A program made the translations under genes and the position numbers. From Eledone cirrhosa (taxonomy: Eukaryota): a stretch of 64,000 nucleotides of DNA. The notes under the pieces were generated by a model. It made no database searches. It saw only the letters and a list, made by a program, of their open reading frames with translations, and was not told the origin of the DNA. The stretch covers positions 273,048,001 to 273,112,000 of the forward strand of contig OZ024740.1 in assembly GCA_964016885.1 (NCBI GenBank), read 5' to 3'. This document shows, piece after piece, positions 4,075 to 63,745 of this stretch. Numbering within the stretch: the first letter of the stretch is position 1; each line of letters begins with the position of its first letter.

Positions 4075-4250
4075 AATAATTGTTTCTAATTTTGGCACAA
4101 GGTCAGCAATTACCCAGTGTATTATTTTATCGACCCCGTAAGGATGAAAGGCAAAGTTAACCTCGGTGGGATTTGAACTCAGAATGGCAAAGGCCGTAAC
4201 TTTATGCGTCAAAGCATGGTGTCCAACCCTCTACCGATACTGCCAATCCA
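4075..4250 (-). mobile_element. tRNA-derived SINE, family A
   Basis: A box TGGCAGTATCGG, B box GTTCAAATCC, core gcctttcatccttacggggtcgataaaat, tail ccttgtgccaaaattagaaacaattatt. Confidence 0.9.
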
Positions 4251-7175: not shown

Positions 7176-7281
7176 ATAATTGTTTCTACGTTTGGCACAA
7201 GGCCAGCAATTATCCAGCACATTACTGGTACATTATTTTATCGACCCCGTAAGGATGAAAGGCAAAGTTAACCTCGGCGGG
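7176..7281 (-). mobile_element. SINE family A, 5'-truncated
   Basis: Tail and core present, no head. Confidence 0.85.
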
Positions 7282-7446
7282 AAAGAAAATAATAATATAA
7301 GTCTTGACTATGAGCTTTGCTTTGTTATTTTTATTTGGCTTTTGCATAAATATAGTTATATAAATATATATATATATGTACATAGACAAACATGCATACA
7401 TCCATAATATACGTATATATGTAGTGTATATGTATGTATGTATGGT

Positions 7447-10892: not shown

Positions 10893-12618
10893 ATGTATAG
10901 CATCTTCACCAATATTCAAAGGAAGAAAAGGGAAGTTAAACTCACAGCTTCCCCCTGCCACTGGCACAGCAGCAGATGCCAAAGGCAGAGGGCAGCCAGA
11001 GGACGAACTTTCTCCACCTGCTGACCGACAACTTGATATAGCCACAACTATACAAGAAACTGAAAACAACAACAAAAACAACAACAACAGCAACAATAAA
11101 GACAACAAAAACAACAACAACACCAACAACAATGATAACAACAACACCACCAACAACAACAGCGACACGAACAAGGAAAAGGTCTCCTTCGCCCAGACTG
11201 CAAGGAAAACCCTCGACTATTTGCCAGTAGATATAAGCAAAACTAAGGTGCTACTGGCAGATGTCAAAAAATACATAGTGTACGGTGAAAATGGATCATT
11301 TTCGATCCACTCGCCCCCGGAATAAACAGCCAGAGACTCCTAAACACTGTCATGTTTAGGACAGTCTCAAACAAAACAAACAAACCAGCTCAACCATCAC
11401 AGCGTGAGGTAGAGCTGGTTTTAAAAGATGTAATGAAAGACATCATATTCATTCAGAAGGATAGACTCTACGGGAGTCTATCCATTCTCATGAAGGACAG
11501 GGACACGGCAGCGAAACTGTCTATAAAACCAATCACATCCACCGCATACACCTTCTACCCTACGTACATGGGTAGAAGGACACAACAAATAAAAATTCAC
11601 ACCATCCTTCCGATTATAGTCATATGGTGGGTATTAACAGGTTTCCTGGACCTAGACGACGACACATTAATATCAATGGGTGACGCGTCCAGTGGAACGG
11701 GCCTCGAACTTGTAGTTCAAATGGGGCCCAAAAGGATCGCCCAGATCCGTGAACGCGTCATACTGGATGATCAAACTTTTATTAACATTACCGTTGAGGG
11801 TAGGCGGCCCTCGTGTTATCTCTGTGGAGCCAGAGGTCTCCTGGGGGCTGTCTGTCTTCAACTTAAAAAGAAAACCCCAATCCTGCCTACACCACCAACA
11901 ACTGCACAACCAACACAATCCCCACAACCACCACTACAAAAACAACCACAGCTCAAACCAATACAAAACAACCCCCCTCCCCCACTAAAAAACAACAACT
12001 CCCAAAACACCCGCAGCGTATACACAACCCGAAAATCTACCCCTCCTCTCCAACACGGAAGATGTCCCTCGTTTGTCGTCAGACGAGAGGAGCACTTTCA
12101 CACAATCAAAAGAAAAAGAAGAAAACACACCCCAGACACACAAATGAAAACAACCCCTCCCCAAAACATGACACAGACACCAACACAAAAGAGCACATAA
12201 CAACAGCAAACAAAAAGCACCACACAAAAACAAAAACATGCATACACATACATAAATACAAGAAATAAAAAAACTGCTAAACATTGTATACAACAACAAT
12301 TTAGTGAAAACCCAAGGGCCTAACTTCACCCAGGCAGGTTATTTCCCCCACCTCAAAATGATTAAGGTCCCAGAGGACACATATAAAAAGCTAAAAAACA
12401 ACTTTAAAGAGGACGTGCCCCCATGCGTCGGGCCCATTAACCGCGTCCTCCTAAAATTTTGCCCCACCCCCTCCCCAAACACACAATCAACTCCAAACAC
12501 CCCAACCACACAACGCACTGATGCCCCTACACTTCCACAAACCACCACCCCACCCAACAACCCATCCTCCACCCTCATGGAAATTGTGCAGCCCGATACC
12601 CGGGACGCAGAGAGGTAA
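10893..12618 (+). pseudogene. LINE ORF1 (gag-like), disrupted
   Basis: Asn-rich N-terminus, SFAQT motif, VEGRRPSCYLCGARGLLGAVC degenerate knuckle, C-terminal YKKLKNNFKEDV. Confidence 0.8.
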
Positions 12619-12638
12619 GTGCCTTTTCTCTTCACCAC

Positions 12639-15600
12639 ATGGCTATGCTGAGAGTAGGTTGTCTAAATGTGCGTGGCCTGGGCTCAACTTGGAAGCAAGC
12701 AATGCTTCTAAATGACCTCAGGTCACAACGTATAGATGTGATGGTTATTTGCAAGGCACGGATCAGCAACGTGCGACAGCTGGCGCCCACCTTTGATGAC
12801 TTTGAGATGCACGCATCTGTCTGTCAGCCCGGAGGTGGGGGTGGGGTTGTCGTTCTGCTGCAAAAGAATTGGGTCTCGCAACACAGACGGTACATTTGGA
12901 CCCGAAGGGTCGACTAGTGGCTCTGGACCTTGGCAGTGGTGAAGGCGGAGCGTTTAGGCTGGTAGCCGTCTACGGCACTTTCGGGTCAACGCGGCCGGAC
13001 TTCTTCCATCGTCTGGAGACCTTTCTAGGGACGTCCCGCTCCTTGCTATTAGTGGGGGACTGGAATAGTATCCTAGATGCACGTTGGGACTACATAGTGG
13101 CGTGTCCCGATAGAGAGGGGTGCAACAGCCTCAAAGGGTTAATCGGCCGATTTGACCTGGCCGATAGATATCGACTAGATTTTCCGACTGCGCCAACCTG
13201 GACTTGGGCAAACCGCAGCGGTTCATCTAGATCGTACCTAGATAGGTTCTTAGTTAGAAATAAGGATAAGGAATTTTTAAGTTGTCCAAAAATGCTCATG
13301 GTTGGCTATTCAGACCATAAGTTAGTGACCTGCATGGTCAACCTTGACAGAACGCATAGACAGGGACCCGGTTACTGGAATTTCAACTTGTCCTTACCGG
13401 CAAGTAAAGCTTACAGGGACGGGATTAACACTTTAGTTAAGGAGCGGTTGACGGGCGCCATCGTCAACAGCACGTGGTGGGGATCTCTCAAAAGAGAGAT
13501 TAGAGTAGTCTCTATAGAATTTAGTAAGGAGTTAGCCTCAAATAGAAATAGGAAGGAAAGGGAGTTGGTAGATAGTGTAGAAGAGGCACTTAGAAGCAGC
13601 GGCGTGGCCATTGTGCTAGCGTCGAGAACGGCCCTGGGCCAGTTCTTCGACGCGAAACACGAAGGCTGCATCGTCCGAAGCAAAATACGTGCTCTGGGAA
13701 ACGAGTGGACCAAAGCTGTTAGCTGGGCCCGCGTGACAGAAGCCAAAAGAGGGAGTAGATCCACTATCCGGTCTTTGCGAGACCAGGATGGACGGGTGAT
13801 CCTTGAACCTAAGCAGATGTGCAAGGCTTTTCAAAAGCACTTTGCCAGATTGTTCGGAAGGAGCGAGGAGCCGGTTGGGGAAGTGGACTTCGGTCCATAC
13901 CTCGACGGCCTGCCGCGTCTCTTTGACAAGGAGGCGAAGTCCTGCGAGGAGCCGATTTCATGCGCTGAGATAGGATAGAGGATGTGCTGAGCCAATGCGG
14001 CAAACGCAAATCCCTGGGTCTCGATAGTCTTCCATGCGAACTATATCTAGCTATACCGGACTTGTTCCCCGATCTCCTCGAGGCGGTCTACTGCAACTGG
14101 CAACAGAACGGGAGAAGTCCCTGTGCTGTGACCAAGGGAGTAGTCACGCTAGTGAGGAAGGACGAGAACAAGGGGGACGATATAAATAATTTCAGGCCCA
14201 TAACTCTGCAAAATACAGAGTTACAGATTTTGGCCAAGGTGCTAGCAAAGAGGTTGGCGCCTGTTGTGGGCAACCTGGTGGGAGATGCACAGACATGTGC
14301 TATCCCGTCCAGGTCCATCCACGACAACCTCCACCTCATGCGACACATCATTGAGAGGGTTGGGAACGAACCCGGCTTTGGTGGGGCCCTGATCAACTTG
14401 GATCAATCTAAGGCGTTCGATAGGGTCGACCATGGTTACCTGGATGCGGTGCTAGCGGCGGCAGGCTTCGGACCCGTTTTCAGGGGCTGGATCATTGCCA
14501 TGCACAGCAGCCGCATCTGCTCTAGAGTCAAGGTGAACGGCTACCTCTCGGAGCCGTTCGAAATCGCGCGGTCCATCCGACAAGGGTGCCCTCTCTCCTC
14601 CCTTCTGTATGTGATGGCTCTAGAGCCACTGCTGCGGAAGTTGGAGTTGTTGCAGGGCATCCCGATGAAACCGGATTGCAGAAAGCGGTGTCGGCCTACG
14701 CCGATGACGTAACAGTAATGGTGTCGACGGCCTCGGAAATCGGAGCGATCGGGACCTTACTGGAGGAGTACGAAAGGTTTACAGGGGCTAAGCTGAACCG
14801 GGACAAGTCGATCGGTTTGCAACTCAGCACGTGGAGGGGCAAATCGATGCCCTCCGATGGCGTCGTCGGGCGCTGGACGTAGAGCCCGGTGAAGCTGCTC
14901 GGGGACTGGTTCGGACCAGACCTCCAGGTGGAGAAGAACTGGGGTGAGGTAACGAACAGGGTGTTTGCACTGACCCAGAAGTGGACCGAGTGCAAACTGT
15001 GCCTGAAAGGTCGGGTGGAGGTGGCGAACACTTATATAGCGTCCGTCATCTACTACCGCCTGGACGCCGTGCCTTGCCCAAGGGAAACGCTCGCCAAAAT
15101 GGAGCGCGCACTCTTCCAATTCAGTTGGAAGATCGGGCTCCTATGATGAGGAGATCCATCTGCTGTCAACACCCTTCGAAAGGAGGGCTGGGGATGCCGT
15201 GGCTGATGATGCGTAAAAACGCATTAACGCTACGGCACCTCCAGGTATTCCTCAGAGGTCAACCGGTGTGGGCCCCGTTTGTGAGGCGAGCCTGTCCCAG
15301 ACTCGTCTCGCTCACCGAGCTGCAATCCTGAGTCAAGCAAAGACCGAGAAAACTGGGCGCCTGGCACACAGAGTGTGCCCAGGCGCTCACGGCTCTCTGG
15401 CATGCGGACCCGGCTGTCAGTGGAGAATCCACCTCGTCATTCTATAGAGGGCTGGTGGTTAGCAGGTGCGACGACGCCCTCGGAGAATCCCTAGGCATGG
15501 AGGAAAACGAACTGGCCAACCTGTTCGGTAGGACATTCAGCCCGGGACCCATGGATAACTTCCAGAGGTCCCTGGCCTGGCAGTGCTACCGAGGGGCTCT

Positions 15601-16077
15601 GCCCGTTCGAGAAAGGCTCTCCAGACACGGGCGCCCGGGTAGGGACCCCTCAAAAAAGATCTGTCCCAGATGCGTGTGCGACGAGCAAACCGTTGCACAC
15701 GCGTTGGTACACTGCTCGGGTATTGACGATCTGTGGGGCTATGTGGAACGACTGCTGTCACGGGTGGGACCGATCCGGTTGACCACCGTTTCTATTGTAA
15801 CGATCAAGCCGCCTCCCCTCTTCAAAAACGAAGGAGAGGCGGTGTTTCTGTGCGTAATAGCCATGGCGAAAGAGGTTGTATGTGGAAGCGTCTGAAAGGA
15901 CTGAGGTTAGACACCTTTCTCTCTGGCCAACAACTGGTCCATTTCTTCCGATATCATTTCGGAAGAAGTATCAGGATGGAGAGAGAGGTGCTCCACCCCA
16001 GCCGTTTTTATGTAAGATGGGTGAAAGTGGCGAGAATGGCCCGTGTGAATGGGCCTTCACTCTACATCAGACTGTAG
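12639..16077 (+). pseudogene. LINE ORF2 (APE endonuclease, RT, CCHC), several stops and frameshifts
   Basis: LNVRGL, GDWN, SYLDR, SDH; FRPITL, LDQSKAFDRV, RQGCPLS, AYADD; CPRC..H..C. Confidence 0.95.
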
Positions 16078-16435
16078 GTGAGTAAGATGAAAGATCCATG
16101 GTGCACCCTCTCTCTGTGCCCATGAGTAGAAGGGTTGCACACTTTTTCGGGTGTGTGTGCGACCCCCCAAGGCGCCTCCTCTCTATTGAGGATGTTGTTA
16201 TTCAATTTATTTTCGTTATATTTTATATTTTATATTTTTATATTTTGTTATTGCCTCCTCCTTATTGAGGACACCTTTTTATGTAAACTCCCCCCATTGT
16301 ACTTATCCCACTCTTTGATGCCCTGGTGGCAAATAATAAGAAAGTTATCTATCTATTTATGTATCTACCTTTCATTAAATCTATCCATCTCTTTTTCTCT
16401 CATATATATCCTTAAGTTTATATATATACTTGATA

Positions 16436-17212: not shown

Positions 17213-17642
17213 TAATAATGGTTTCATATATAGGCACAAGGCCAGCAATTTTGGGGGAGGGGAAAATCGATTAAATCGACCCCAGTGCGTGACTAGTACT
17301 TTATTTTATCGACCCCGAAAAGATGGAAGGCAAAGTTAACCTCGGCGGGATTAAGAACTCAGATCATAAAGTGCCGTAACTCTATGCTGCAAATCATGGC
17401 GTCCGGCCCTCTACCAATACTGCCAATCCACCGCCCTATCAACCTTAATAATTGTTACTAGTTTTGGCTCAAGGCCAGCAATTATACCAGTGCATTACTG
17501 CTACTTTATTTTATCGACCCCGTAAGGATGGAAGGCAAAGTTAACCTCGGCGGGATTAAGAACTCAGATCATAAAGGGCCGTAACTCTATGCTGCAACGC
17601 ATGGCGTCCGGTCGTCTACCGATACTGCCAATCCCCCGCCCT
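17213..17642 (-). mobile_element. Two tandem full-length SINE A copies (long-body and short-body variants)
   Basis: Heads end ccgccct at ~17437 and ~17642; atcaaccwtaataat is duplicated around the second copy. Confidence 0.9.
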
Positions 17643-21797: not shown

Positions 21798-21978
21798 TGG
21801 TGGATTGGCAGTATAGGTAGAGGGTCGGACGCCATGCTTTGCAACATAGAGTTTCGGCCCTTTGCGCTCTGATTTCAAATCCCGCTGAGGTTAACGTTGC
21901 CTTTCACCCTTACATAAATACCAGTAATGCACTGGCATATTGCTGGCCTTGTGCCAAACGTAGAAACAATTATTATTA
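21798..21978 (+). mobile_element. SINE family A
   Basis: Head, partly deleted core, tail ccttgtgccaaacgtagaaacaattattatta. Confidence 0.88.
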
Positions 21979-23659: not shown

Positions 23660-23675
23660 ACATATATATATATAT

Positions 23676-23871: not shown

Positions 23872-23885
23872 TATATATATATATA

Positions 23886-23991: not shown

Positions 23992-24027
<36 letters not shown>

Positions 24028-24030
24028 TAT

Positions 24031-24247: not shown

Positions 24248-24305
<58 letters not shown>

Positions 24306-30115: not shown

Positions 30116-32270
30116 TTAAGTTATTTTATAGTGAGAGAATTTAGCTTTTAGTTTGTGGTTGCAGTATAATGATCGTTCAATTCTATCGTTACGTAGTTTG
30201 TTTTTGGATTTTAATATGTAAAAGAGTTCAAGGTTACATAACCTGCAGCACTTCAATCCACTCCGATATGCACTTGCGCTTGAAAGTATATCCCATTTTA
30301 AGGTGAACTGTTGGTTGCGTTCGCGGAGTTGCCAGGTTTTGTTGGCGAGCGTGGTCACAAAACGGTGATTAGGATGTTTGATTGAGAATCGATGACGGTA
30401 CCAGCGAGATTTAAACGAGGTGGTGGTAGATCCGATATAATACCATAATCTGGTCGTTCGATTCAACCGTGCATTGGTAAACAATGTTGGACTTTAGGCA
30501 TTCATTCTTCAATGGACATCTTTCAGGTAGATGGCAGTTACATTCTTTGTTGTGGGTAGCGGGTATACCATGGATAGGTTGTGATAGCGGTACAGGTGGA
30601 TTGTGCAATACCCGTCTCCCATTTAGTGGTTGGGAGGCAGATATTACGTTCTGTCCATCTGTTACTAAAATGTTTTGTTTTGTAGAGTTGTTTAATTTCC
30701 TTAAGTTAATTTTTTTTTATGTATGCTTCAAGGTTTGGTGCCGTGGAGTATGATAGTCTAATAGTTTAAGAGTTCAGAATTTTGCAATATTTATGGGAAC
30801 TAGGGAAATGTTTGTTGATTAACTTAAAGAATGAAAGAGATAGTTTTGTACTAATCGAGGCATTAAAAATAGGATTGTACCAGCTATACTTTCTACAACG
30901 AGATTTATTTGGTGGTGATTTTCTATTATTAGTATGTCTGGTAGTACTGTGTGTGTGCGCTTGTATTTTAGTCCACCGGTTACGTATTCCTTGATTTCGT
31001 GTAGAGCTATGTGTGTTATGGAAATTCCTATCAATGTATTCTATTGTATCCCGGTGGTTGGCCTTTCTTAATGCATTATTGTAGTATTCAGCGTGTTCAC
31101 TAAAAATATCAGAGTTAGACGATAGGCGAGAGATTCTAAGAGAAATACTCCGGGGAACTGATTTGATCATGGAGAGTGGGTGGTTTGAGTTAAAGTTAAT
31201 ATACGTAAGGTTCTCATTCATCTTGTGGAAGGGTCGTATCTGTCCGGTATTTAAATTAAGAGTTACGTCCAGAAAGTTTACTACTTTAAGATTGTATTCG
31301 TATGTTATTTTTAGACCCAGTTCACTAAAAGATTTTCTAATATTTTTCCGTCGCCTTTCAAGATTTTGGTTATTCAAGTTATTAACTAATAAGAGCCCGT
31401 CATCTCGGTATATCCCCCCCTGTAGATTACTAAATTTACTATGTAATATGTGGGCTATGTAAATTCCCACGAGATCCGTGACCTCCGCTGAGTCGTTGGA
31501 ACCCATGGTAATGTCGAAATGTGTGGGTCTGTCCTTACGTTCCCAGTAGCAGTTATCAAACTTAATAATGGTTTTTCTAGCCTCGAGAATAATATTAATT
31601 TCGTCCTCTGTTAGATCGGAATTGACCTTAGCAAACGATAGGGACTTACGTAAAGTGCTTGGTGAGATGGAAGAGTAGTATTCGTCCATGTCAAATTGTA
31701 TAAACTTAGATTTATTCTTATTCTTAACGTTATTAAACCAGCGAATTGCTTCCCTTGTGTTGCTCCATAATTTAATTTCAATTCTCTTTTTCACTTGAGT
31801 TATTACTCTGTCAAGTATATGTTTGCTAATTTTTCCTATGTCTGATTTAGAAGGGCATATAAGTCTAATCTTAGGGTTAGAGTCAAAATTTACTTTATGG
31901 TCCTTCAGGTTGAAGGTGGGGGTAGCGGGTATAATCGGTTCGGTTCTATCGTCTATCTTGAGATTCTTCACCACTTTATATGCCTCGTTGTTAATATTTG
32001 CCAGCGTAGTTTCATTTGTTTTTCTATATTTTTTGTGTAGTTCGTTGCGTATGAAGTTATTGTACGTATAGATATCCATGGTATACACGTTAGAGGTCTT
32101 GTCAGCTTTCACAACAATTCCATTGGTATTTTGCAATCTTCGGAGTAGTGCTTTCATGTTGCTCTGCAGCTCATTATTTCTATGTTTGTTGAACTTAATG
32201 TTCATGGTCGTTTTCATTAAATCTTGTTCGAAAGCATCGAGATGAGGGTTTGTGGGTGGGTTTTTACATG
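30116..32270 (-). pseudogene. Penelope-like RT-GIY-YIG polyprotein with one nonsense codon and at least two frameshifts near the C-terminus
   Basis: KADKT, LKDHK..KIRLICP, QFDMDEYYSSI, TMGS, IYRDDG, NFLDVTL; CNCHLPERCPLKNECLKSNIVYQC..YYIGST..FKSRW..H; CRLC; CNH. Confidence 0.92.
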
Positions 32271-32616
32271 ATTTTCACATAATTTCACATAAATATATAT
32301 GGAGAGAGAGGGAGAGGGAGAAATAGAGAAAACCAGAGAAAGAGAGAGTAGAGAGACAGAATGAGAAAGAGTGAGGTGGATGGAGAATGAGTGAGAGAGA
32401 GGCCCCAAAAATCTTCTTTTTCACTCCCAAGTTTACTAATGGTGCTGTGAGACACTAAACAATCTCTACTTTTGCAATCCAGACTGCATCATTCACATAC
32501 AAAATTTAGAACACTGTTTTCTTTCGACCTTGCCATATATTATATAAGTTCTTAGTTCTTATGTTGATATGGCTTCTGATGCCACTTTGAAATGTCTTCC
32601 TTTCGTCCCTTTACTG

Positions 32617-32975
32617 GATGTGGATTGGCAGTATCGGTAGAGCGTTAGGAACAATGCTTTGCAGTATAGAGTTATGGCCCTTTACATTCTGATTTCAAAT
32701 TCCAGCGAGGTTAACTTCGCCTTTCATCCTTGCGGGGTCGATATAATAAAGCAACAGTAACACACTGGGATAATTACTAGCCTTGTGCCAACAGTAGAAA
32801 CAATTATTACAGTCCGTTTACGTTCTGAGTTCAAATCCTGTCGAGTTTAGCTTTGGCCTTCATCCTTACGGGATCGATAAAATAGATTACCAGTAACGCA
32901 CTAGGGCGGATTTAATTGAATTTTCACTATACCCAAAATTACTGACCTTAAGCTTAAATCAGAAACCATAAAACA
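32617..32975 (+). mobile_element. SINE family A full copy followed by a 5'-truncated copy
   Basis: Two cores; first tail ccttgtgccaacagtagaaacaattatta at ~32790. Confidence 0.85.
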
Positions 32976-33897: not shown

Positions 33898-33952
33898 TCA
33901 GTTGATAGGGTATTAACCTATCTGAATGTTTTCATTATGTTATCCAAGAATA

Positions 33953-34168
33953 GGACGGTGGATTGTCAGTATCGGTAGAGAGTCAGACGCCATGCTTTGC
34001 AGTATAGAGTTACGGCCCTTTACGGTTTGGGTTCAAATCCCGCCGAGGATAACTTTGCCTTTCATCCTTAGGGGGTCGATAAAATAAAGTACCAGTCTCG
34101 CACTGAGGTCGATTTAATTGACTTTCCCCTCGCCCAAAATTGCTAACCTTGTGCCTATATAAGAAACC
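33953..34168 (+). mobile_element. SINE family A with target-site duplication
   Basis: attatgttatcc occurs before the head and after the tail, where it runs into the gap. Confidence 0.9.
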
Positions 34169-34180: not shown

Positions 34181-34380
34181 NNNNNNNNNNNNNNNNNNNN
34201 NNNNNNNNNNNNNNNNNNNNNNNNNNNNNNNNNNNNNNNNNNNNNNNNNNNNNNNNNNNNNNNNNNNNNNNNNNNNNNNNNNNNNNNNNNNNNNNNNNNN
34301 NNNNNNNNNNNNNNNNNNNNNNNNNNNNNNNNNNNNNNNNNNNNNNNNNNNNNNNNNNNNNNNNNNNNNNNNNNNNNNNN
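34181..34380. other. Assembly gap (200 N)
   Basis: Run of n. Confidence 1.
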
Positions 34381-40125: not shown

Positions 40126-40163
<38 letters not shown>

Positions 40164-40412
40164 TTTCATTTATTGGCCACAAGGGCCGACATATAGGGGA
40201 CAACACAATAGACAGGGACAGTGGGGGTTTACATAGAGATCGAGTAAGTATAAATAACAAAAACAAAATAACAATAAAAATACAACAATGAAAGTTCCCC
40301 AATAAGAGGGATCACCACCCAGGGTTGACTCAAGCACCCCACCAGTCCTGAGCCACCCGACGCTCCTAGGGCACCCGGGAAGGGCACCCCTCTCCTTCTC
40401 GAATTCACCAGC

Positions 40413-43400
40413 CTACAGGCGCATGATCAGAGTAGGCCCACTCACGCGGGCCATTCTCGCCACATTCACCCACCTTTCAGTAAATGTACTGGGGGGCAGC
40501 ACTTCTCTCTCCACCCTCACCTTCCTTTCCAAGTGAAACTTGAAGAAGTTGATGAGGGATTGGCCGAAGAGAAAAGTGTCTGTCTTCAGTCCTTTCAACC
40601 TGGTCCACCATGCAACCTCTTTCGCTACTGCCACCAGGCAGAGGAAAATTGCCTGCCTTTCCTGACCAAAAGAAGGCGGCGGGTCAATCTTCACTATGGA
40701 CTCGGACGATAGCCGGATCCGTTCTACACGCGACAATAGCTGTTCGACATAACCCCACAAGTCAGCAATGCACGGACACTGGACGAGTGCGTGCAGAACG
40801 GTTTCGTCGCTCTGCGCGCATCTCGGGCAGGTTCGTCTGACAGCACTTCCGTGCCTGTAGAGTTTATCCCGAACCGGCAGCGCCCCCCGGTAGCACTGCC
40901 AAGCGAGGGATTTCTGGAAGTTATCCATCGTCCCCGGCTCGAAAGTCCTCCGGAACATACTGGTCAGTTCTACTTCGTTGACGCCTAGAGCCTCTCCTAG
41001 TACGTCATCGTACTTGCCCTCCACTAATCCTCTATAGAAATCTTGAGTGGAAGTTCCACTGACCGCATTGCCCACCTTGCAGAGTGCAGTGAGCGCCTGG
41101 CAACATTCCAGATGCCAGTCGCCCAGTCTCGGTCTCTTCTTGACCCAGGACTGCAGTTCAGTCAAAGAGATGAGCTGCGGAAAGGCCCGTCTGACAAACG
41201 GCGACCACACCTGTTCATCGTTTAGGCAAAATATCTGGAGATGTCGCAGCCTCAGCGCATGTCTGCGCATCATTAGCCACGGCTTGCCCAGCCCTCCACG
41301 AAGAGGGTGCTGGCAGCAGATGGACCGCCTCACCAACGGGACCCGTCCCCTCCACAAAAATTTGAAAAGGAGCCGTTCCAAATTGGCGAGGCGTGGACGG
41401 GGGCAAGGCACGACGGTCAGGCGGTAGTAGATGACGGACGCGATGTACGCGTTCGCCACCTCCGCCCGCTCTTTCAGTGATAGCTTTCTCTCAGCCCATT
41501 TCTGGGTGAGGTTGACTATCCTGCTTGTCACCTCGTCCCAATTCTTATCCACCTGGAGGTCTGGTCCGAACCAAACCCCGAGCAACTTTACCGGTCCGTC
41601 TGTCCAGCGCCCCACGACGCTGTTGGACGGCATGGACTTGCCTCTCCAGGTGCCGAGCTGCAAGCCCACCGACTTTTCCAGGTTAAGTTTTGCTCCCGTC
41701 AACCTTTCATATTCCTCCAAATGGGTGCGGATCACCTCGATTTCCGAGGTGTCCGACACCATCACGGTGATGTCGTCCGCATAAGCGGACGCAGCCTTTC
41801 TACGTCCCGATTCGAGCGGGATGCCCTGCAACAACTCCAGCTTCCGCAGTAGAGGCTCAAGAGTCAATACGTACAGAAGTGAGGAGAGAGGGCACCCTTG
41901 ACGGACCGATCGAGAGATCTGAAACGGTTCCGAGAGGTGGCCATTAACTTTGACCACCGAGCAGATGCCGCTGTACATTGCAGCGATCCAGCTTCTGAAG
42001 ACGGGGCCGAAGCCAGCCGCCTCGAGGACAGCTTTCAAGTACCGATGGTCGACCCTATCGAATGCTTTCGATTGATCTAAATTGATCAGAGCCCCACTGA
42101 AGCCAGGTTTGCACCCAACCCTCTCTATGATGTATCACATGAGGTGGAGGTTGTCGTGTTTGGACCTGGTCGGGATTGCGCAAGTTTGCGCCTCCCCAAC
42201 CAAATCTTTGACGACAAGCGCCAACCTTTTCGCTAACACCTTGGTCAAAATCTTAAACTCTGTGTTGAGCAGGGTTATGGGCCTGAAATTATCTAGTGTG
42301 TCCCTCTTGTTCTCGTCTTTCCTTATCAGCGTCACTACGTCACGGCTCACAGAACTGGGAATGCTCCCGTTCTGCTGACAGTTGCAGTAGAGCGCTTCGA
42401 GGAGATCGGAGAACAAGTCTGGCATATTTACGTAAAGCTCGTAGGGCAGACCATCCAAACCGGGTGACTTGCGACTCGAGCAGCCGACAAGGGCGTCCTG
42501 AATTTCGACTGATGTTATCGGCTCTTCGCAGCGCTCAGCGTCGGCCGTCGAGAGGCGTGGCAAGCCGTCGAGGTAGGGACTGAAGTCCGCCGCCGTCTCC
42601 GACTCACCCATCCCCCCGAACAATCGAGCAAAGTGCTGGCGAAAGGCCTCACACATCTGCTTGGAATCGCTCAGTTCGTGTCCATCTCGATCCGTCAAAG
42701 ACCGAATTGTGGTTTTATTTCCACGCTGCGTCTCTGCAAAGCGAGCCCATCGGGCAGCTTTGGTTCCCTCGTTCCTCAGAGCACGCGCCTTAGCTCTGAC
42801 AATGCAACCTTCGTGTTTCGCATTGAAGAAATGGTCTAGTGCCATTCTCGCCGCTAGCACGTCTGTTGCAATGCCACTACAAATAGCCTCGTCTAACTTA
42901 GCTATCAGCCCCTCCTCCTTTCTATTTTTCTCTATTGCTACTTCTTTGCTAAATCCTATCGAGGTTGCTCCAATCTCTCTTTTGAGAGCCCCCCACCACC
43001 TGTTGTTGACAACCCCCCCTGTCAACTTTTGCTTAACTAAGTTGTTGACCCGGTCCCTGTAAGCTTTACGTGCCGGAAACGACATGTTTAGCTTCCAGTA
43101 GCTAGGTCCTAACCTACGTGTCTTATCTAGGTCGACCATACAGATCACAAGCTTGTGATCTGAATAGGCAACCGTTTTAAAATGTGGACATCCTACACTA
43201 TTTCTATCTCTTTTCCTAATGAAAATCCTATCTATGTACGATCTAGATGACCCTATGCGATTGGTCCAGGTCCATACTGGCGCATTAGGGAAATCTAGTC
43301 GGTACCTGTCAGACAGTTGAAACTGGCTGATCAGGTACTTGAGGCTTTTGCACCCCCCGCTCCTATCAGATACTCCCACACAATCCCAGCGTGCTTCTAA

Positions 43401-43832
43401 GATGCCATTCCAATCCCCTATTAACAGTAAAGGGCGAGACGTAAGCAGAAAGTTTTCCAGGCGCCTAAAGAAGTCCGGCCGACCGGCCCCAGTAGGGGCG
43501 TAGACGGCCACCAGTCTAAAGGCACCACCTTCGCCATTGCTCACGTCCAGGACCACCAACTTTCCGACAGGATCCCGGAAGATTGACCTTACCTCGAGAT
43601 CCAGACATTTCCTAAACAGCACAGCCACTCCACCTCCCATTCCCGGCCGACTAACAGATGCAAAGATCTGATAATCGTCGAAAATCGGCGCCAGTGCGCG
43701 TGTGTCGGAAATTCTGGTCTCGTTGATGGCAATTACATCCATTCCTAGTGACCTGAGGTCGTTGAGCAAGCGACCTTGCTTCCAGGGCGACCCCAGGCCA
43801 CGAACATTTAAACTTCCTACTCTTATGGCCAT
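40413..43832 (-). pseudogene. LINE ORF2 (APE-RT-CCHC, 1139 codons) with a single in-frame TGA at 42135-42137
   Basis: Track ORFs 42135..43832 and 40413..42038 are in the same frame; sister copies have CGA (LHLMR) at this codon. Confidence 0.95.
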
Positions 43833-43861
43833 GCTGGCAGGATGAATGGGAGAGGAAAGGT

Positions 43862-45771
43862 TTACTTACCTTCCGGGGTCTTGTGAAGGTCGGGTGGTTC
43901 GACCTCCATGGTTTGTGGGGTTTCTTTTGGGAACCCCTTTAATAGTCTTGAAGTGGGTTTTACGTTCGGGGTTCCCACATCCCGAGGAAAGCTCTTTCGA
44001 ATTTCTTTGTATGAAGCGAGCGACATTCGCATCAGAAGCAAATTATCTGGTACGCGAAATGTGCTCGCTTCAAATGTTTCCCCCTCTTTTTCGATGTTTG
44101 TGCTTCGTGCTACATGGGCCATCAATTCCTTGTTGGCCCTTCTGGCAAGCACGAAGTTTTTAATGTTTTGTTGCTCGGGTTTTATTTGTTCGTGTGATTG
44201 TGGTGGTGATAGCTTTGTTAGTGTTGTTTCTATTGTGTCTGCGTTTGTTGTGGGTGGGGTGTCTGTAGTTTCTGATGTTTGTGTGTCTATTTGTTCTTGT
44301 GTCTGTTTAGCTTGTTTGCGTTTGGGGGATTTTGGTGGTTGTGTTGGTGATGCTGTGGGGAAAATGTTTGTGTGGGTGGTGTGTGTATTTTTTTTTGTGG
44401 GGGTGTTTGTGCTTTGTGGATTTCTTTTTTTTTGTGTTTTGTTTTTTGTATTTTGGGGGACTTTGGTTTTCCCTCATCTTCACTGCTGGAGGATGAGGGG
44501 TCTGTGGCTGTGAGCGTGTTTGTGTCTGAGTGAGTGTTTATGTTCTTGTTCGTGTGTGTATTTTGGGGGGGAGGGGGAATGGGAGAGCTTTCCTCGTTTC
44601 CCCCCTGGGTGTGCAATTTTGGTGGTTCCATTGTTGACGGTGTTGCTGGTGGTCCTTGTCCCGGCGTCGCCAGCAGTGGAATCTTTCGACCCCTTGCGCT
44701 TTTCGGCAGTTGAGGGCAGAAGGCTCGCAAGTGTGTCGTTTCCCCACAAAGGAAACAATGTGGCCTTTTGCCCTCAGTCATTATATGCAACACCCTCCCG
44801 TTTTGGAGGCGGATGTGGTCCGGGATTGCTTTTACGTTTTCGGGTCTGATTTGGAGCAGTATCTCCAGATCAACCCCGGACCAGTCGTCCCTGGCAGTTC
44901 TCGTTGCCTCTACCGGGACTGTATCCGTTCCTTCCACGATTACGCAACCCAGGAGCCACCACATATCAAGTCCTGGTGGAATCCTGGGAATGCGCACACG
45001 TGCTATTCGTTTTCCCATGTGGGAGGGGTACATTATGACCTTGCTGGTTTTGCAAGGGGTCATTGAATGCTTCACAGCGAGGGCTTCAGACTTGAACAGC
45101 ACCGAAACGGTGCCGTATTGCCTGCCCCTCTCTATGAAGTCTGTGTCCTCTCTGATGTATTTCAGTGCGGCTTCTATATCAGCTTGGGCGATTATCGCTG
45201 CCCTCTTTGTCTCTACTGAGATGCATCTGAAATGCACCGTTCTTTTTTCCACTGCCTCAATGGCTTCTGCCGGGACAGTTAAGTTTGCCCAGGTCTGCTC
45301 TTGATTTATGATTTTCCAGGCCTGGGCCAACTTTTCCTCTCTGTTGGTTAAGTCGATGCTGTAGCATGGTCTCCTTTTAGCCGCTGCCACAGCAGCGAAG
45401 GTGTTCTTGTTGGTGTTGTCACTGTTGTTGTTTTTGTTGGTGTTGCTGCTGCTATTGCTGTTGTTGTTCTCCCCTGTGTCGTGGTTACCCTCTGTGCTGT
45501 TGGCCTTGTTGGTGCTGCTGCTGTCGCTACTATTACTCTCTGTGCTGTTCGTTTTGTTGGTGCTCTCGCTATTACCACCTTCTGCGCTGTTCGGCTTGTT
45601 GGTGTTGGTGTTGTCGCTGTTACCACCTTCCGCGCCGCTCGGCCCGTTGGTGCTGGCACTGTCGCTGCTCACACTCGTGCTGGTGGCGCTCCTCGCCCCA
45701 CCTCTCCTCTCAACGCTCAAGTCGCCGTTGCACGACAGCAGACTCGCCTCTAGGGGGCGTGGCTCCGCCAT
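43862..45771 (-). CDS. LINE ORF1 (gag-like, CCHC), with a net frameshift in the low-complexity linker
   Basis: TFAAVA, CFLCGETTHLRAFC; C-terminal YKEIRKSFPRDVG lies in another frame. Confidence 0.85.
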
Positions 45772-46002
45772 GTTTTTTTGAGAAAAAAATTATTATTTTT
45801 CCAAAATAAAGTTCAAATATTTGGGCCAAAAGGCCCAAATATTATGAGTTATTCCTTCACAGGATACAAATGAATGTCTTATAATGCTTCAGCGGTACAA
45901 AAAAATAAACAATTCTCTACAATTAATCCTCAAAAATTGCTTACTCACGGAGCTTCAAAAAACGTACATCCACTTTCGTCAATAATAATAATAATAATAA
46001 TA

Positions 46003-47721
46003 ATGGTGCCTCATTCTTGGATCACCAAATGCCTGGAGATCTTCGGGGTGGCAGATAACATCAGACAGTTGCTGGGCAGGAGTATGGGGTCCTGGGAGAC
46101 AGAGTTGACATCAACTGGAGTATCCTTGGGAAGCGTGAAGATCAAGAGAGGTATCTTCCAGGGAGATAGCCTGTCCCCTCTGCTGTTTGTCCTTGCCCTG
46201 ATGCCCTTGACCATTATGCTGCGAAAAGTGAGAGCAGGATACAAGTTGGGAAAGGGAGAGCTTACCATCAATCATCTCCTCTTCATGGACGATCTTAAGC
46301 TCTTCGGGAAAAGTGAGAAGGAGTTGGATGTGCTTGTTGACACTGTCCGTATTTTCAGCAGTGATATATGTATGCAATTTGGTATTAGTAAGTGTGGAGT
46401 CATTGTGATGAGGATGGGTAGGTTGAACAGAAGTAACGGGATCCAGATACCAACAGGTGAGATGATAAAGGAAATTGACTCTGAGGAAGGATACAAGTAT
46501 TTGGGCGTTCTGGAGGCTGATGGCATAAAGAACAAAAAAATGAAGGAATTGTTAAGAACTGAATACATTCGGAGAGTAAGGAGCGTGTTGAAGTCACATC
46601 TGAACAGCAGAAATGCCATAAGCGCAGTAAATTCCCGAGCTGTGTCTATTATTAGGTACAGTGCGGGAATTCTGAGATGGAATGTTGCTGAACAAAAAGA
46701 AATGGATAGGAAGACTAGGAAGCTATTGACTATCTACAACATGTTCCACAAGAGGAGTGATGTCGATAGACTCTACCTAAGGAGATCTGAGGGTGGAAGA
46801 GGTCTTATCAGCATAGAGGACTGTGTTCAGATGGAGAAAAACAACCTATACAAATACGTGACCTATAGTAAGGGGCCAATGCTCAGAACTGTACTGAAGG
46901 AGGGGACAGTAGGCCAGGGGATGTCCAAGGAGGAAATAACATCAAGGAGGAAGAGCAGCCTTAAGGGAAAATCCCTTCATAGTACCTTCTTTGAGAAAAC
47001 TGAATTTAGAGATCCACAGACATGGAACTGGTTGAGAAGAGGAGACCTCAAAAAGGCTACAGAAGGAATGCTAATGGCTGCGCAGGAGCAGGCCCTCAAA
47101 ACGAAGTGGTTGAAGCACCATATTTACAAGGAGGAGGCTAGCCCACTGTGCAGGATCTGTGGAGAGAGAGAGGAGACTGTGGCTCACATTGCGTCCGAGT
47201 GTAAACACCTAGCCCAGACCCACTATAAGGGCTGGAGACACGATGTGATGGGCAGGGTGATCCACTGGCACCTGTGCAAAGTAAACAATTTACCACATTC
47301 TGAGAAATGGTATGAGCATAGGCCAGAGGCGGTGATGGAGAACAATCAGGTGAAGGTGCTGTGGGATTTTAGGATACAGACGGACAAAAAACTGGAACAC
47401 AATAGACCTAACCTGGTGGTTGTGGACAAAGAAAAAAGATCGTGTCTGATTGTGGATGTGGCCTGCCCATTCGACACGAGAGTGCAAGAGAAGGAGAGGG
47501 AGAAAATTAACCGATACCAGGACCTAAAGTGGGAGGTGAAAAGGATTTGGAACTGCCATGAAGTCAAAGTGATCCCGATTGTCATAGGCGCACTGGGGAC
47601 TATCTCCAAAAGTTTCCAGGGATGGTTAAAGAAAATCGGCCCCTTCACGCTTTTTGGAACGCTTCAAAAGGCATGCTTGCTGGGAACAGCAAGAACCCTC
47701 CGATACGTCCTGAATATCTGA
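46003..47721 (+). CDS. Uninterrupted C-terminal part of RT plus CCHC plus restriction-like endonuclease
   Basis: GIFQGDSLSP, LFMDD, YKYLG, CRICGEREETVAHIASEC, RHD, RPN..IVDV..KEREK..RY. Confidence 0.92.
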   Translation: MVPHSWITKCLEIFGVADNIRQLLGRSMGSWETELTSTGVSLGSVKIKRGIFQGDSLSPLLFVLALMPLTIMLRKVRAGYKLGKGELTINHLLFMDDLKLFGKSEKELDVLVDTVRIFSSDICMQFGISKCGVIVMRMGRLNRSNGIQIPTGEMIKEIDSEEGYKYLGVLEADGIKNKKMKELLRTEYIRRVRSVLKSHLNSRNAISAVNSRAVSIIRYSAGILRWNVAEQKEMDRKTRKLLTIYNMFHKRSDVDRLYLRRSEGGRGLISIEDCVQMEKNNLYKYVTYSKGPMLRTVLKEGTVGQGMSKEEITSRRKSSLKGKSLHSTFFEKTEFRDPQTWNWLRRGDLKKATEGMLMAAQEQALKTKWLKHHIYKEEASPLCRICGEREETVAHIASECKHLAQTHYKGWRHDVMGRVIHWHLCKVNNLPHSEKWYEHRPEAVMENNQVKVLWDFRIQTDKKLEHNRPNLVVVDKEKRSCLIVDVACPFDTRVQEKEREKINRYQDLKWEVKRIWNCHEVKVIPIVIGALGTISKSFQGWLKKIGPFTLFGTLQKACLLGTARTLRYVLNI

Positions 47722-47795
47722 GGCTGCAGGTAGTGGCTTGATATTCATTCCAACGGACTTTCCAGTTAACCAACATCAATGACTGAGATTCAAGG
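46003..47795 (+). mobile_element. R4/Dong-clade LINE copy 1, 5'-truncated
   Basis: Begins inside the RT directly after (AAT)8; short 3' UTR followed by (AAC/AAT)n. Confidence 0.92.
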
Positions 47796-47840: not shown

Positions 47841-47843
<3 letters not shown>

Positions 47844-48337
47844 TTTAGCATCCAAACAGACCGAAAAATAGATGCAAATAGACCTGATATAATACTGAAG
47901 GACTTTAAAAAGAGGGTGTGCCTGCTAATTGATATGTCCGTTCCAATAGAAAAGAATGTATCTATAAAAACATTTGAAAAATTGAGCAAGTATAAGGACA
48001 TGGAGATATAAATTGGAAAAATGTGGAAATTGAGAACTAAAACAATACCAGTGGTTGTAGACGCTCTAGGAATGATATCTAAGGGCTCTAATGATTACTT
48101 ATCGCAAATCCAAGGAAACCCGCGTATAGGAGAAATACAAAAGATAGTACTAATGGGAACTGCCCATATACTAAGGAAGATTCTGTCAATATAAGTACAT
48201 CACAAGTCTAAACACCTAAAGATGCATGTGCGTGTATGTATGTTTTTTCTTGAACATGGCGGACCTTGTCTCTTGAGGTCATTGGTTGTGACCTGGTGAT
48301 AACTGGTATGAACATAAAGCAAGATAAATGCAACTCT
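47841..48337 (+). mobile_element. R4/Dong-clade LINE of a different family, heavily 5'-truncated (RLE only)
   Basis: Hand translation NFSIQTDRKIDANRPDIILKD..LLIDMSVP..EKLSKYKD..TIPVVV.ALG..LMGTAHILRKILSI*; (AAT)n on both sides. Confidence 0.88.
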
Positions 48338-48404: not shown

Positions 48405-51400
48405 GTTCGTCTACAGCGTGATGGTACCACGCTAAAATCACCGGTGGTTATGTAACCATACATTCACCAATCCTCGATATGAGTGTTTAAATGTCGAACC
48501 TAAACAGTTCGAATAACGGTGAAGAGGATACTGGAACGTCATGTGAAAGACTCTCCCCCAGCAAGTGCTCCCTGGCCCAGCAGCAGGGACCTGGCTGTCA
48601 TCCAAATACTGCTGGTGTTGGAGGAAGAAAAGAAGAAGGAAAGAGACAAGAACCAACTGGACGAAAGAATTGAATAGAACTGTCCTGGAATGTTACCTGA
48701 AGAGTAACCTCATGGAAAAAGGCTATAGGAAACGGATGCATAACATCTGGAACGAGATTGTTCTATTTAAGTTAGATGAACAAAAATTGGCCGGGCAGGG
48801 TCCGGTAATAAGAACTAATGGATGGATAAGCGAGTTTGAACTGGAGGAACTGAGCAGAGAGATTAAGTTGGAAATGGAGAATGGAGTATGTGAGGCAAAC
48901 GAGCCAGTGGGAAATGAAGGTGAAGAGGTTGAGAGACCTGAGGAAGCATCCGAAGCAGACAATGATCTGAATGCTGAAATAGATAACATCTGGAACAAAG
49001 ATACGGCCATTGAGTTAATGAATGCTGACGCGCTAGGATAAGATTTGGTTGATATCATGAACTTAGTGGTAGCTGAAATGAACAATGATAGTGGAAAACC
49101 TATGAACCTAAGATTTGTAGACAGGAAAAAGTTAAAAGAAACAACAGCTAAGGTAAACAAAGTCATCCCATACCTTGAGGCAAGGAGCCTTCACCAATGC
49201 AACAATATCCTCAAAGCAACAGCAAATGCGGCGAGGAAATTACTTGGCAGAAAAATGAGAGAAAACAACAAACAAGAAAGAACCTTGGTGGAAGAAACGA
49301 CTGAATGGGTAAATCAAGGAAATAAGAAAAGACATTGGAAAGCTTGAGTCCTTACTAAATGGGACATTACAAAACATAGACACTAAAGATAGATTGGAAA
49401 TAAAGTACAAAACCAGGGGGGAAAGCTAAATATTATCATAAACTGAAGTAACGCATTTTAGCAAAAAGTGCAAAGATTAGGCGGTATGTGAACAGAACCG
49501 CATGTTTGACAACAACCAGAAGATGTTGTTTGGACAGCTTGAAGGGAAAGAAAGAGGCAACGACTTGATCCCTGAGGCGGAACAGACTAAGACATTCTGG
49601 AGAGGAATATGGGAACTAGATGTTGAACATAATAGCCAGGCAGTGTGGATTGAGACAGTTCAAAAAGAGATTAGTGAAGAAGCACACCAACAACCTGATT
49701 TGAGTATCACAGTTGAAACTCTTAAAGGGCAGGCCAAAAAACTAACCAACTGGAAATCACCAGACCCAGATGGTGTGCAAGGGTATTGGATTACAAATAT
49801 AACATCTCTCCACCCGAAACTGACAACCATGTTCAATGACTGCTTGATGTCGCGTGAGGTACAAGAGTGGTTGAGAAAAGGTACCACAGTTCTGGTAATG
49901 AAAGACCGCATCAATGATAATGATGTTACCAACTATAGGCCTATCACATGTCTGTCCGTAATGTGGAAACTGTTAACAAGCATTGTGTCTGAGGAAATCT
50001 ACCATCACCTCCACATAAACAACTTGTTACCGGACGAACAGAAAGGATGCCGAATGAAGTCCCGTGGTACAAAAGACCAGTTACTTATTGATAAGTTGGT
50101 AATGAGGAATTGCAAGAGGAGGCACACTGGTCTTGCCATGAGATTGATAGATTACAAAAAAGGCATTCGACGTTGTACGTCATTCTTGGATAACCAAAAG
50201 CCTAGAGATCTTCAAGGTGGCAGATAACATCAGACAGTTGTTGAGCAAAAGTATGAAATCCTGGGAAACTGAGTTAACATCGGGTGGAGAATCCTTGGGA
50301 GGCGTGAAGATCAAGAGAGGTATCTTCCAGGGAGAGTCCCATCTGCTGTTTGTCCTTGCCCTGATATCCCTGACCGTTATATTGCGAAAATTGAGAACAG
50401 GATACAAGTTGGGAAAAGGAGAGCTTACCATCAATCACATCCTCTTCATGGACGATCTTAAACTGTTTGGGGTGAGTGAGAAGGAGTTGGATGTACTTGA
50501 CACTGTTCGTATTTACAGCAATGGTATATGTATACAATTTAGTATTAATAAATGTAGAGACCTAGATGAAGAGCAGAAACAACGGAATCCAGGTACCAAC
50601 AGGTGAGATGATAAAGGAAATTGACACTGAAGAGGGATACAAATATTTAGTTGTTCTGGAGGCTGATGACATCAAGAACAAAAAATGAAGGAATTGATAA
50701 GATCTGTGTACATAAGGAGAGTAAGTAGCGTATTAAAATCACATCTTAACAGTAGGAATGCCATAAGTGCAGTAAATTCCCGAGCTGTGTCTATTATTAG
50801 GTACAGTGCGGGAATTCTGAGATGGAATGTTGCTGAACAAAAAGAAATGGATAGGAAGACTAGGAAGCTATTGACTATCTACAACATGTTCCACAAGAGG
50901 AGTGATGTCGATAGACTCTACTTAAAGAGATCTGAAGGTGGAAGACGTCTTATCAGCATAGAGGACTGTGTTCAGATGGAGAAAAACAACCTGCACAAAT
51001 ACGTGACTGACAGTAGGGAGCAATGCTCAAAATTGTACTGAAGCAGAAAACAATAGACCAGGGAATGTCCAAGGAGGAAATAACGGGAAAGGAGGTAGAG
51101 CAACCTTCATGAAAAATCCCTTCATAATACCTTCTTTAGGAAAACTGAATTTAGAGATCCACAGACATGGAACTAGTTAAAAAGAGGAGACCTTAAAAAA
51201 GCTATAGAAGTAATGCTAATGGCTGCGCAAGAGCAGGCCCTCAAACGAAGTGGTTGAAACACCATATTTACAAGGAGGAGGCTAGCCCACTGTGCAGGAT
51301 CTGTGGAGAGAGAGAGGAGACTGTGGCTCACATTGTATCCGAGTGTAAACACCTAGCCCAGACTCACTATAAAGGCTGGAGACATGATGTGATGGGCAGG

Positions 51401-57920: not shown

Positions 57921-58302
57921 AATAATAATTGTTTCTACTTTTGGCACAAGGCCAGCAAATTACCCAGTGCATTACTGGTACTTTATTTTATCAACCCCGT
58001 AAGGATGAAAGGCAAAGTCAACCTCGGCGTGATTTGTAATAACTAATAATAATTGTTTCTACGTTAGGCACAAGGCCAGCAAATACCCAGTGTATTACTG
58101 GTACTTTATTTTATCGACCCCGTAATAAATAATAATAATGATTTCTAGTATAGGCACAACTCCAGTAATTTGAGGGGGGAAAGGGTCAATTTCATTGACC
58201 CCCAGTACGTTACTGGTGCTTTATTTTATCGACCCCGTAAGGATGAACGGCAAAGTTAACTTCGACGGCATTTGAACTCAGAATGTAAAGGACCATAACT
58301 CT
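57921..58302 (-). mobile_element. Three stacked 5'-truncated SINE A copies separated by (AAT)n
   Basis: Tails at ~57930, ~58053 and ~58140. Confidence 0.9.
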
Positions 58303-58310
58303 AATAATAA

Positions 58311-59292: not shown

Positions 59293-59511
59293 ATGATTTC
59301 TATTATAGGCACAAGACCAGTACTTTTTTTGGGGGGGGGGTCAATTAAATCGACCCCAGTACGTTACTGGTGCTTTATTTTATCAACCTCGTAAGGATGA
59401 AAGGCAAAGTTAAAATCGGCGGGATTTGAACTCAGAGAGTAAAGGGCCGTAACTCTATGCTGCAAGGCATGGCGTCTGACTCTCTACCGTTACTGCCAAT
59501 CCAGCGCCCTA
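59293..59511 (-). mobile_element. SINE family A with target-site duplication
   Basis: gagac(c/a)ctactaaaat flanks both ends. Confidence 0.92.
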
Positions 59512-60445: not shown

Positions 60446-60569
60446 CATGGGTAATTTCTCGCCTTGTGCCAAAAGTAGAAACAATTATTTTATTTTGGTT
60501 TGCTTGAACATGGTTACCTAAGATCCTTGCGACATCATCAGGCTCGGATTGCACACACACACACATAAG

Positions 60570-62751: not shown

Positions 62752-62960
62752 ATTGTTTCTACTTTTAGCCAGCAATTGGAAGGAAAGGAGAAATTCGATT
62801 ACATTGACCCCTGTACATTACTGAAACTTTATTTTATTCACCCCGTAATAATGTAAGACAAAGCTATGCTCGACCGGATTTGAACTCAGGACGTAAAGGG
62901 CCGTATTTGCATGCCACAAAGCTTTTTGCCCGAAGCTCTACTAATGCTGTCAATCTACTG
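62752..62960 (-). mobile_element. SINE family A, diverged
   Basis: Tail, core and B box (ggatttgaactcag on the plus strand). Confidence 0.8.
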
Positions 62961-63235: not shown

Positions 63236-63452
63236 GGGCGGTGAATTGGCAGTATCGGTAGAGGGTCGGACGCCATGATTTGAAGCATAGAGTTATGGCC
63301 CTTTATGATCTGATTTCAAATCACGCCGAAGTTAACCTTGTCTTTCATCCTTACGGGGTCGATAAAATAAAGTACTAGTCACTCACTGGGGTCGATTTAA
63401 TCGATTTTCCCCTCCCCTAAAATTACTGGTCTTGTGCCTATATAAGAAACCG
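63236..63452 (+). mobile_element. SINE family A, full length with 17-bp target-site duplication
   Basis: ttattgaaaccttatca occurs before the head and after the tail. Confidence 0.93.
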
Positions 63453-63567: not shown

Positions 63568-63745
63568 AATAATTATTTCTACATTTGGCACAAGGCCAGC
63601 AATTACCCAAGTGCATTACTGCTACTTTAATTCATCGACCCCGTCAGGATGGAAGGCAAAGTTAAACTCAGCACGCAAAGGGCCATAACTCTATGCTGCA
63701 CAGCTTGGTGCCTGACGCTCTACCGATACTGCCAATCCACCGCCT
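63568..63745 (-). mobile_element. SINE family A with internal deletion of the B box
   Basis: Tail, core and A box present. Confidence 0.85.

Follow-up and report, generated by a model that had tools for sequence, protein, structure and literature searches.

A short 3' module with a predicted hairpin is shared by an abundant octopus SINE and L1-clade, probably Tx1-type, LINEs

The window, that is, the whole 64-kb stretch of Eledone cirrhosa DNA analysed here, is eukaryotic, repeat-rich DNA that holds five LINE copies identified by Pfam matches to an APE endonuclease, a reverse transcriptase (RT) and a zf-RVT domain, or to their remains. Their ORF2 DNA is 68-79% identical, and L40, L35, L52, L17 and L16 are therefore distinct families. 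L40, a full-length L1-clade and probably Tx1-type element (40162..45980, minus strand), carries ORF1 (45771-44287) with a CX2CX4HX4C knuckle, ORF2 (43832-40413) with all three domains and a single in-frame stop (42135-42137), and a 251-nt 3' UTR closing in a terminal module (40162..40187) that consists of a predicted stem-loop (40187-40175; 4 bp, 5-nt loop), AATAAA (40174-40169), GAAA and the end. An (ATT)12 array (40126..40161, minus strand) joins its 3' end to the 5' end of L35, so that both LINEs lie head to tail within one array, and an (ATT)8 run upstream of L40 (45981..46004, minus strand) also marks the 5' junction of an opposite-strand Dong/R4-like fragment. L35 (35307..40125, minus strand) is broken and internally deleted, with a stem-loop at 35331-35319 and a decayed (ATT)n after its end. 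L52 (51949..57920, minus strand; stem-loop 51974-51962) starts directly after a SINE (ATT)3 and ends inside the (AAT)n tail of a Dong/R4-like element. The broken copy L17 (17671..20600, 5' limit approximate, minus strand; stem-loop 17695-17683) has a tandem SINE pair immediately after its 3' end. L16, also broken (10900..16344, 5' limit approximate, plus strand; stem-loop 16319-16331 with the loop CTGGT), has no ATT run after its end and runs into TATC-like repeats, whereas the other four of the five LINE ends finish in (ATT)n.

Three further non-LTR copies on the plus strand (46005-47795, 47841-48337 and about 48410-51921), which from a C-terminal nuclease motif we take to be Dong/R4-like, served as control elements. 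The target of Dong is TAA, and these copies close with (AAT)n when read in the sense direction, with a polarity opposite to that of the SINE and the LINEs and with unrelated tails. Together with three of the L1-clade copies on the minus strand they form a 22.6-kb nest (35280-57930) that consists almost entirely of non-LTR elements sitting in ATT/AAT runs; the two clades, whose nucleases differ, exploit one microsatellite in opposite polarity, each inserting into the other's tails. Elsewhere, a putative Penelope-like element (about 30100-32300, minus strand) comprises a 502-aa RT-like frame, after which comes a weak match to GIY-YIG (E=0.0066).

The 3' ends of 16 SINE copies were located in the window, with the sense strand fixed by A-box-like and B-box-like motifs. 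Full-length copies are 216-218 nt long and 83-91% identical. The 216-nt copy at 63236..63451 (plus strand) shows both box-like motifs, a conserved central domain and the tail, and is flanked by an exact 17-bp duplication; others lie at 59295..59510 (minus strand; 17-bp target duplication with one mismatch) and at 33952..34168 (plus strand), where 12 bp of the duplication are visible, and 18 bp implied, before an assembly gap of 200 N (34181-34380) directly after the element. A fourth belongs to a tandem pair (17220..17642, minus strand) in which an internally deleted form (17642-17453) is followed by the full-length copy (17437-17220), with a copy of the 15-bp target duplication between them; with L17, which ends at the same ATT start, the site (17195-17670) has received three insertions. 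Internally deleted forms also occur at 4081..4250 (minus strand), 21800..21968 (plus strand) and 63574..63745 (minus strand), a 5'-truncated copy with an 11-bp duplication beginning ATTAT at 7181..7282 (minus strand), two copies head to tail at 32620..32967 (plus strand), three stacked 5'-truncated pieces with short ATT runs between them directly upstream of L52 at 57930..58303 (minus strand), a decayed copy whose loop region is deleted at 62754..62958 (minus strand) and an isolated tail fragment at 60449..60483 (plus strand). The common form misses about 35 nt just before the tail; of the tail region these internally deleted SINEs keep the last 35 nt or so alone, yet the form is common. Head-to-tail arrays recur, as joints between a SINE head and a tail are also seen in sequencing reads. 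A different repeat, found at 23618-24301 and 60281-60456, has long inverted arms and, adjoining (TA)n, a duplication of 120 bp; one copy of it (60281-60450) is fused to the isolated SINE tail.

Size, box-like motifs and duplications in 5 of 15 copies identify the element as a tRNA-type SINE; ARAGORN detected no tRNA in the window, and Rfam at its gathering threshold returned nothing there. When four sequencing runs (X1, X2, X6 and X23) were aligned to one full-length copy, the SINE proved very abundant, with 16,963 to 180,745 records in each. From an apparent likeness of head, central domain and tail, it is presumably the octopus OK family (Ohshima and Okada 1994). The central domain is presumably the Deu/Nin domain; a 24-nt motif of it was also found in 121 metagenome loci representing SINE-like repeats of other animals, and was absent from the viral contigs and prokaryote genomes scanned. 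The heads of these metagenome families are unrelated and their tails are of at least three kinds, and none of the 87 motif matches with at least 120 nt downstream carried the tail of the SINE in the window.

(ATT)n is found at the LINE ends and, in three copies, at the 5' junctions as well, L16 having none. Among the 15 SINE copies examined, the four with an intact 5' end had duplications of 17, 17 (one mismatch), 15 (one mismatch) and 12 bp (18 implied), one truncated copy had 11 bp, and the remaining ten showed no duplication or short ATT-rich matches alone; in a control of 208 mismatched flank pairs, three scored at least 13 and six at least 11. All SINE duplications start with ATTAT, ATTTT or TTATT, and in three dated insertions this start is at most one base from the GAAA-N-C end of the tail. 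The ATT junctions, the duplication starts and the common polarity bear out the earlier claim that the SINE and the LINEs share an ATT target and an orientation. The duplications of 15-18 bp, which are SINE data because the LINE flanks are pure repeats, fit the range published for L1 (7-18 bp) better than that for RTE (mostly up to 13-15 bp; PMC6007223, cited, like the other sources below, from the accessible portion of its text).

All five L1-clade LINEs and the tRNA-type SINE close in a common end, formed by a 3-4-bp stem, a CT(T/G)GT loop, 12-13 nt containing RAAA and (ATT)n, the last missing in L16. Across the five LINE ends, the terminal 25 alignment columns reach 74% pairwise identity, against 7-52% in other 25-column blocks of the 3' UTRs and 68-79% in ORF2 DNA, so that the first-pass annotation was right to call this block the best conserved part of the 3' UTRs. 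The five ends that it quoted are all present, and its positions hold for L40, L52 and L35 (40162, 51949 and 35307); its 17660 falls inside the ATT run of L17, whose last base is 17671, and its 16320 lies in the stem of L16, the end of which, on the plus strand, has 16344 as its last base. The (ATT)n endings that it gave to L40, L17, L52 and L35 were found, as was the absence of ATT from the L16 end.

The match between LINE and SINE tails was scored in two 3'-anchored analyses. In the first, which used the 16 SINE tails with ATT removed and 40,052 sampled 28-mers outside SINEs, the three best scores were those of the L17, L40 and L52 ends; the L16 end would place fourth, and 76 positions scored as high as L35 or higher. 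Shuffling gave z values of 2.9-5.3 for the five LINE ends and of -1.2 to -0.1 for three Dong-like ends. In the second, 6 of the 16 SINE tails were compared with about 120,000 window positions under three scoring schemes, giving ranks of 1/1/1 for L17, 4/4/3 for L40, 6/5/5 for L52, 7/16/16 for L16 and 174/29/102 for L35, many of the top places being offsets of the same sites. The match is short, at about 30-40 nt with about 70% identity in the best pair: LINE/SINE identity, about 0.76-0.79 over the ten columns that begin with the loop, drops to 0.40-0.48 over the preceding ten and to background beyond those. A profile HMM built from four full-length SINE copies gave 20 matches, 19 of them SINE-derived and the last-ranked being the L40 tail (E=0.037, ATT included). 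Unanchored profile HMMs without ATT were not significant, E being 10 when the SINE model was run on the L40 end and 0.57 when the LINE model was run on one SINE end, and a routine BLAST screen would thus miss the pair. Homologous 3' ends, as expected of a stringent SINE/LINE pair, are therefore indicated by the anchored tests over a short match, the unanchored searches being negative. On the strength of the anchored ranks and shuffles, the sequence comparison supports the shared tail well and we regard it as real, as the earlier reading had it.

Two other origins of the likeness were rejected. The LINE ends are not merely adjacent SINE fragments, as a LINE-specific GCC/GGC stem and AATAAA occur in the five families. 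Nor are the Dong/R4-like elements the SINE partner, given their opposite polarity and background tail scores; for a better match to the SINE tail from another clade, which would have spoken against the first reading, the comparison was limited to these Dong/R4-like ends, and it excluded them. No CR1 or RTE fragment was seen among the 86 searched of 89 further open reading frames of at least 65 aa listed for the window. Short palindromic GGGCC...GGCCC stems, about 55-65 nt before ORF1 in the 5' UTRs of L35 (39952-39975) and L40 (45811-45835) on the minus strand, also gave high scores against the SINE tail.

A MAFFT alignment of the 5 LINE and 13 SINE tails was ungapped (three of the 16 SINE tails, the most decayed, with broken or deleted stems, were omitted), and the block formerly written with a gap, CCTTGTG(G)C, is better read without one, as a swap in the stem: the second pair is C-G in the LINEs and G-C in the SINE. 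Over these 18 tails the 4-bp stem with its 5-nt loop was paired in 82.4% of 68 cells, with both sides changed in eight. Stem covariation was 0.357, compared with 0.164 +/- 0.044 in shuffles, none of 500 of which reached it, and with at most 0.143 in slid registers; the count is inflated by kinship of the sequences, the LINE/SINE swap being one event, and the structure was drawn from the same tails. Further compensatory pairs are seen in L35, with two A-U pairs where L40 has G-C, and in L16, with an outer U-A pair. The outer pair is U.U in all five full-length-type SINEs; in run X6 (organism C) the outer stem base of the SINE is A in about 88% of depth and would pair with the opposite U, its partner having no entry among the 40 listed of 227. 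A descriptor made of three pairs, loop, spacer and RAAA found 13 sites in the 64 kb, namely all five LINE ends and 8 of the 16 SINE ends, with none outside LINE or SINE ends and a mean of 0.16 (maximum 1) in 50 shuffles, although it was derived from the sequences on which it was run. Folding energy was unremarkable against shuffles (z from -0.94 to +0.72 in four tails). A conserved stem-loop with compensatory changes, as in stringent pairs, is thus predicted in 18 of the 21 tails, and the mini-hairpin proposed before is retained on its paired changes, its folding energy being not significant. AATAAA stands 9 nt after the loop start in four of the five LINE ends and in no aligned SINE.

The LINEs have the layout of the L1 clade, with two ORFs: ORF2 combines Exo_endo_phos, RVT_1 and zf-RVT (Pfam), and ORF1 lies upstream. 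Against PDB, ORF2 matched human L1 ORF2p with E=1.6e-56 and R2 with E=6.6e-20, in a small comparison set with no CR1, L2 or RTE ORF2 among the 15 matches listed. Among named proteins, the LINE protein is closest to one from Argonauta hians (68% across the searched region), and in an RT tree of 39 rows L40 joins Argonauta at 100/100, with a clade holding a cuttlefish protein as sister; scanned viral contigs yielded no ORF2 relatives. Membership in the L1 clade is accordingly solid on sequence grounds. Within it, the LINEs likely belong to the Tx1 branch; cluster look-ups of 30 proteins returned no name containing Tx1. ORF1 is of the RRM plus CCHC type and not of the Transposase_22 type, a type described as consistent with Tx1 (PMC5203782), albeit not exclusive to it. 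Its knuckle is intact in L40, L35, L52 and L17 and altered in L16; matches in the Atlas were to CCHC and ZCCHC3-like RBD clusters (0.90-0.93), while ORF1 had no Pfam match and a homologue search gave zero matches among 1,020 candidates. Long low-complexity arms rich in Asn, Thr and Ser flank the RRM-CCHC core (44287-45771 and other ORF1 copies), encoded by AAC-type repeats and differing between families. Target preference, a Tx1 trait, is visible in three of the five copies, flanked on either side by ATT runs; a fourth has one at its 3' end alone and the fifth none, in what is a small sample from one clustered locus. The annotation of Octopus vulgaris lists 80 L1-Tx1 and 60 L1 families (PMC13282606 supplement), and the Tx1L endonuclease is treated in PMC1950540.

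Taken together, we propose, with a probability of roughly 0.7, that a 3' module about 30 nt long is common to the SINE and the L1-clade, likely Tx1, LINEs, that the predicted hairpin is likely recognised by ORF2p and that the SINE likely uses the LINE enzyme. By analogy with L2 proteins and their tail stem-loops, ORF2p would bind the CUUGU-loop hairpin; its endonuclease would, again by analogy, nick the bottom strand at the start of the duplication, ATT(A/T)T, and the AUU end of the RNA could pair with the freed target strand and prime reverse transcription. A second nick about 17-18 bp away would produce the target duplication. The SINE would mimic the hairpin, GAAA and the AUU end without a poly(A) signal: AATAAA after the hairpin in four of the five LINEs likely serves Pol II 3'-end processing, and the SINE, of Pol III type, lacks it. 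Recognition of the tail by the LINE ORF2p would accordingly be stringent, and with the first-pass annotation we infer a stringent-type L1/Tx1 machinery accompanied by its parasite SINE, the Tx1 label being likely.

An unlikely alternative is that the enzyme is relaxed, the SINE having taken its tail from the LINE lineage and AUU/ATT pairing being sufficient, with the LINE block kept for another role such as AATAAA 3'-end processing and the SINE copy a relic or an aid to RNA stability. Part of the terminal conservation is indeed explained by AATAAA in four of the five LINE ends, the hairpin is of marginal thermodynamic stability, and the crocodilian SINEU, regarded as Tx1-mobilised from its targets and heads, is poly(A)-tailed (PMC4494074). 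Yet the SINE has the hairpin and GAAA in the absence of AATAAA, the stem is kept by paired substitutions in L35, L16 and the SINE, and it is exactly the tail piece that internally deleted SINEs retain. Chance, or the convergence of two AT-rich tails, each with ATT at its end, is a highly improbable source of the likeness. The shortness of the match, the two unanchored E-values (10 and 0.57) and the relatedness of the five LINE ends, which are hence not independent, would be in keeping with it, but with ATT removed the LINE ends came out on top among 40,052 and about 120,000 positions in four scoring runs, with loop and spacing in exact register and with compensatory pairs.

We consider it quite unlikely that the true partner is a CR1 or RTE element with a similar tail and ATT, the likeness to L1/Tx1 being secondary, for instance through tail exchange between clades. 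Such elements are plentiful in Octopus vulgaris, in which RTE (106 Mb) and CR1 (62 Mb) exceed L1-Tx1 (56 Mb; PMC13282606 supplement), bivalve SINEs pair with CR1-Zenon, CR1, L2 and Nimb (PMC11481361), and in sequencing runs the sense-strand flanks upstream of the SINE are T-rich, which is loosely RTE-like. Against this, the 15-18-bp duplications are above the usual RTE range, the L1/Tx1 ends match in register, structure, target and polarity and, in a weak test, none of the 24 loose ends listed of 1,429 from the four runs aligned to a full-length SINE was a foreign family on the SINE tail.

If the recognition of the shared hairpin by the L1-clade enzyme is true, it would identify what drives a very abundant octopus SINE, and it would give direct support to the view of Ohshima that strict 3'-tail recognition is ancestral in the L1 clade and was relaxed in mammals and most flowering plants (PMC3747384), a paper that calls for tests in other L1 lineages. 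An animal L1/Tx1 element whose hairpin is shared with a SINE makes this idea testable through a cis element of about 30 nt with natural compensatory variants, and the solved structures of human L1 ORF2p allow comparison with the octopus LINE. A LINE that moves a short tagged RNA into ATT sites would also deserve attention as a system for targeted insertion.

SINEs make up 11.7% of the O. vulgaris genome, most of them unclassified, and 'tRNA-Deu' SINEs are annotated there (PMC13282606 supplement). No partner for the octopus SINE is named in the accessible text of PMC13282606, PMC9115989, PMC4758252, PMC4824008, PMC5804259 or PMC3531059, the words 'Tx1' and 'Octopus' are both absent from the accessible part of the PMC5786205 supplement, and the 58-pair SINE/LINE table of PMC3747384, as far as it was available, holds no Tx1, cephalopod or octopus SINE pair. 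We found no animal L1/Tx1 pair with a shared tail in the full-text papers searched; Repbase, Dfam and SINEBase tables, subscription papers and supplements may record one.

The first-pass annotation named L2, CR1 and RTE as the typical partners in tail sharing, and missed published cases from the L1 clade. The 58-pair table contains L1-clade pairs from maize/sorghum and Chlamydomonas (PMC3747384; also PMC3472496), and a SINE-Tx1 association is described in crocodilians (PMC4494074). In the latter, as here, a SINE (SINEU) was proposed to be mobilised by a target-preferring Tx1 element (Tx1-Mar), and some crocodilian Tx1 families target microsatellites; the assignment was made from shared targets, ages and snRNA-derived heads, SINEU being poly(A)-tailed, and the accessible text of PMC4494074 reports no shared 3' tail, whereas the octopus pair is linked by a shared tail hairpin and involves a tRNA-type SINE. 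Kibi and Koshi, also of the Tx1 clade, likewise show APE-type insertion into simple repeats, their targets being of the TC/TTC type instead of ATT, with no SINE partner reported in that portion of the paper (PMC4494074). The L2 elements ZfL2-1, ZfL2-2 and UnaL2 and their SINEs similarly have a 3' stem-loop just before a short repeat, in which the loop must be cognate and the stem is exchangeable if pairing is kept (PMC4176376); their stem is longer, in two parts, and its role experimentally shown, whereas the octopus system belongs to the L1 clade, has a minimal stem and is deduced from sequence. The closest parallels are pairs of a tRNA SINE and an L1-clade LINE with a conserved 3' end in common, namely maize ZmSINE2/ZmSINE3 with LINE1-1_ZM and Chlamydomonas SINEX-3_CR with L1-1_CR, the maize pair having, like the octopus pair, a hairpin with compensatory changes (PMC3747384). 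The plant and algal pairs share about 45-80 nt and end in poly(A) or (T)n (PMC3747384, PMC3472496); the octopus pair differs in being animal and in sharing about 30 nt, with a 3-4-bp stem, an (ATT)n end and an ATT target. The broader reading, for which we see about even odds, is that a stringent L1/Tx1 LINE of an animal reads a minimal CUUGU-loop hairpin, targets ATT and drove a SINE that ranks among the most abundant in octopus genomes, as an animal counterpart of the maize and Chlamydomonas pairs.
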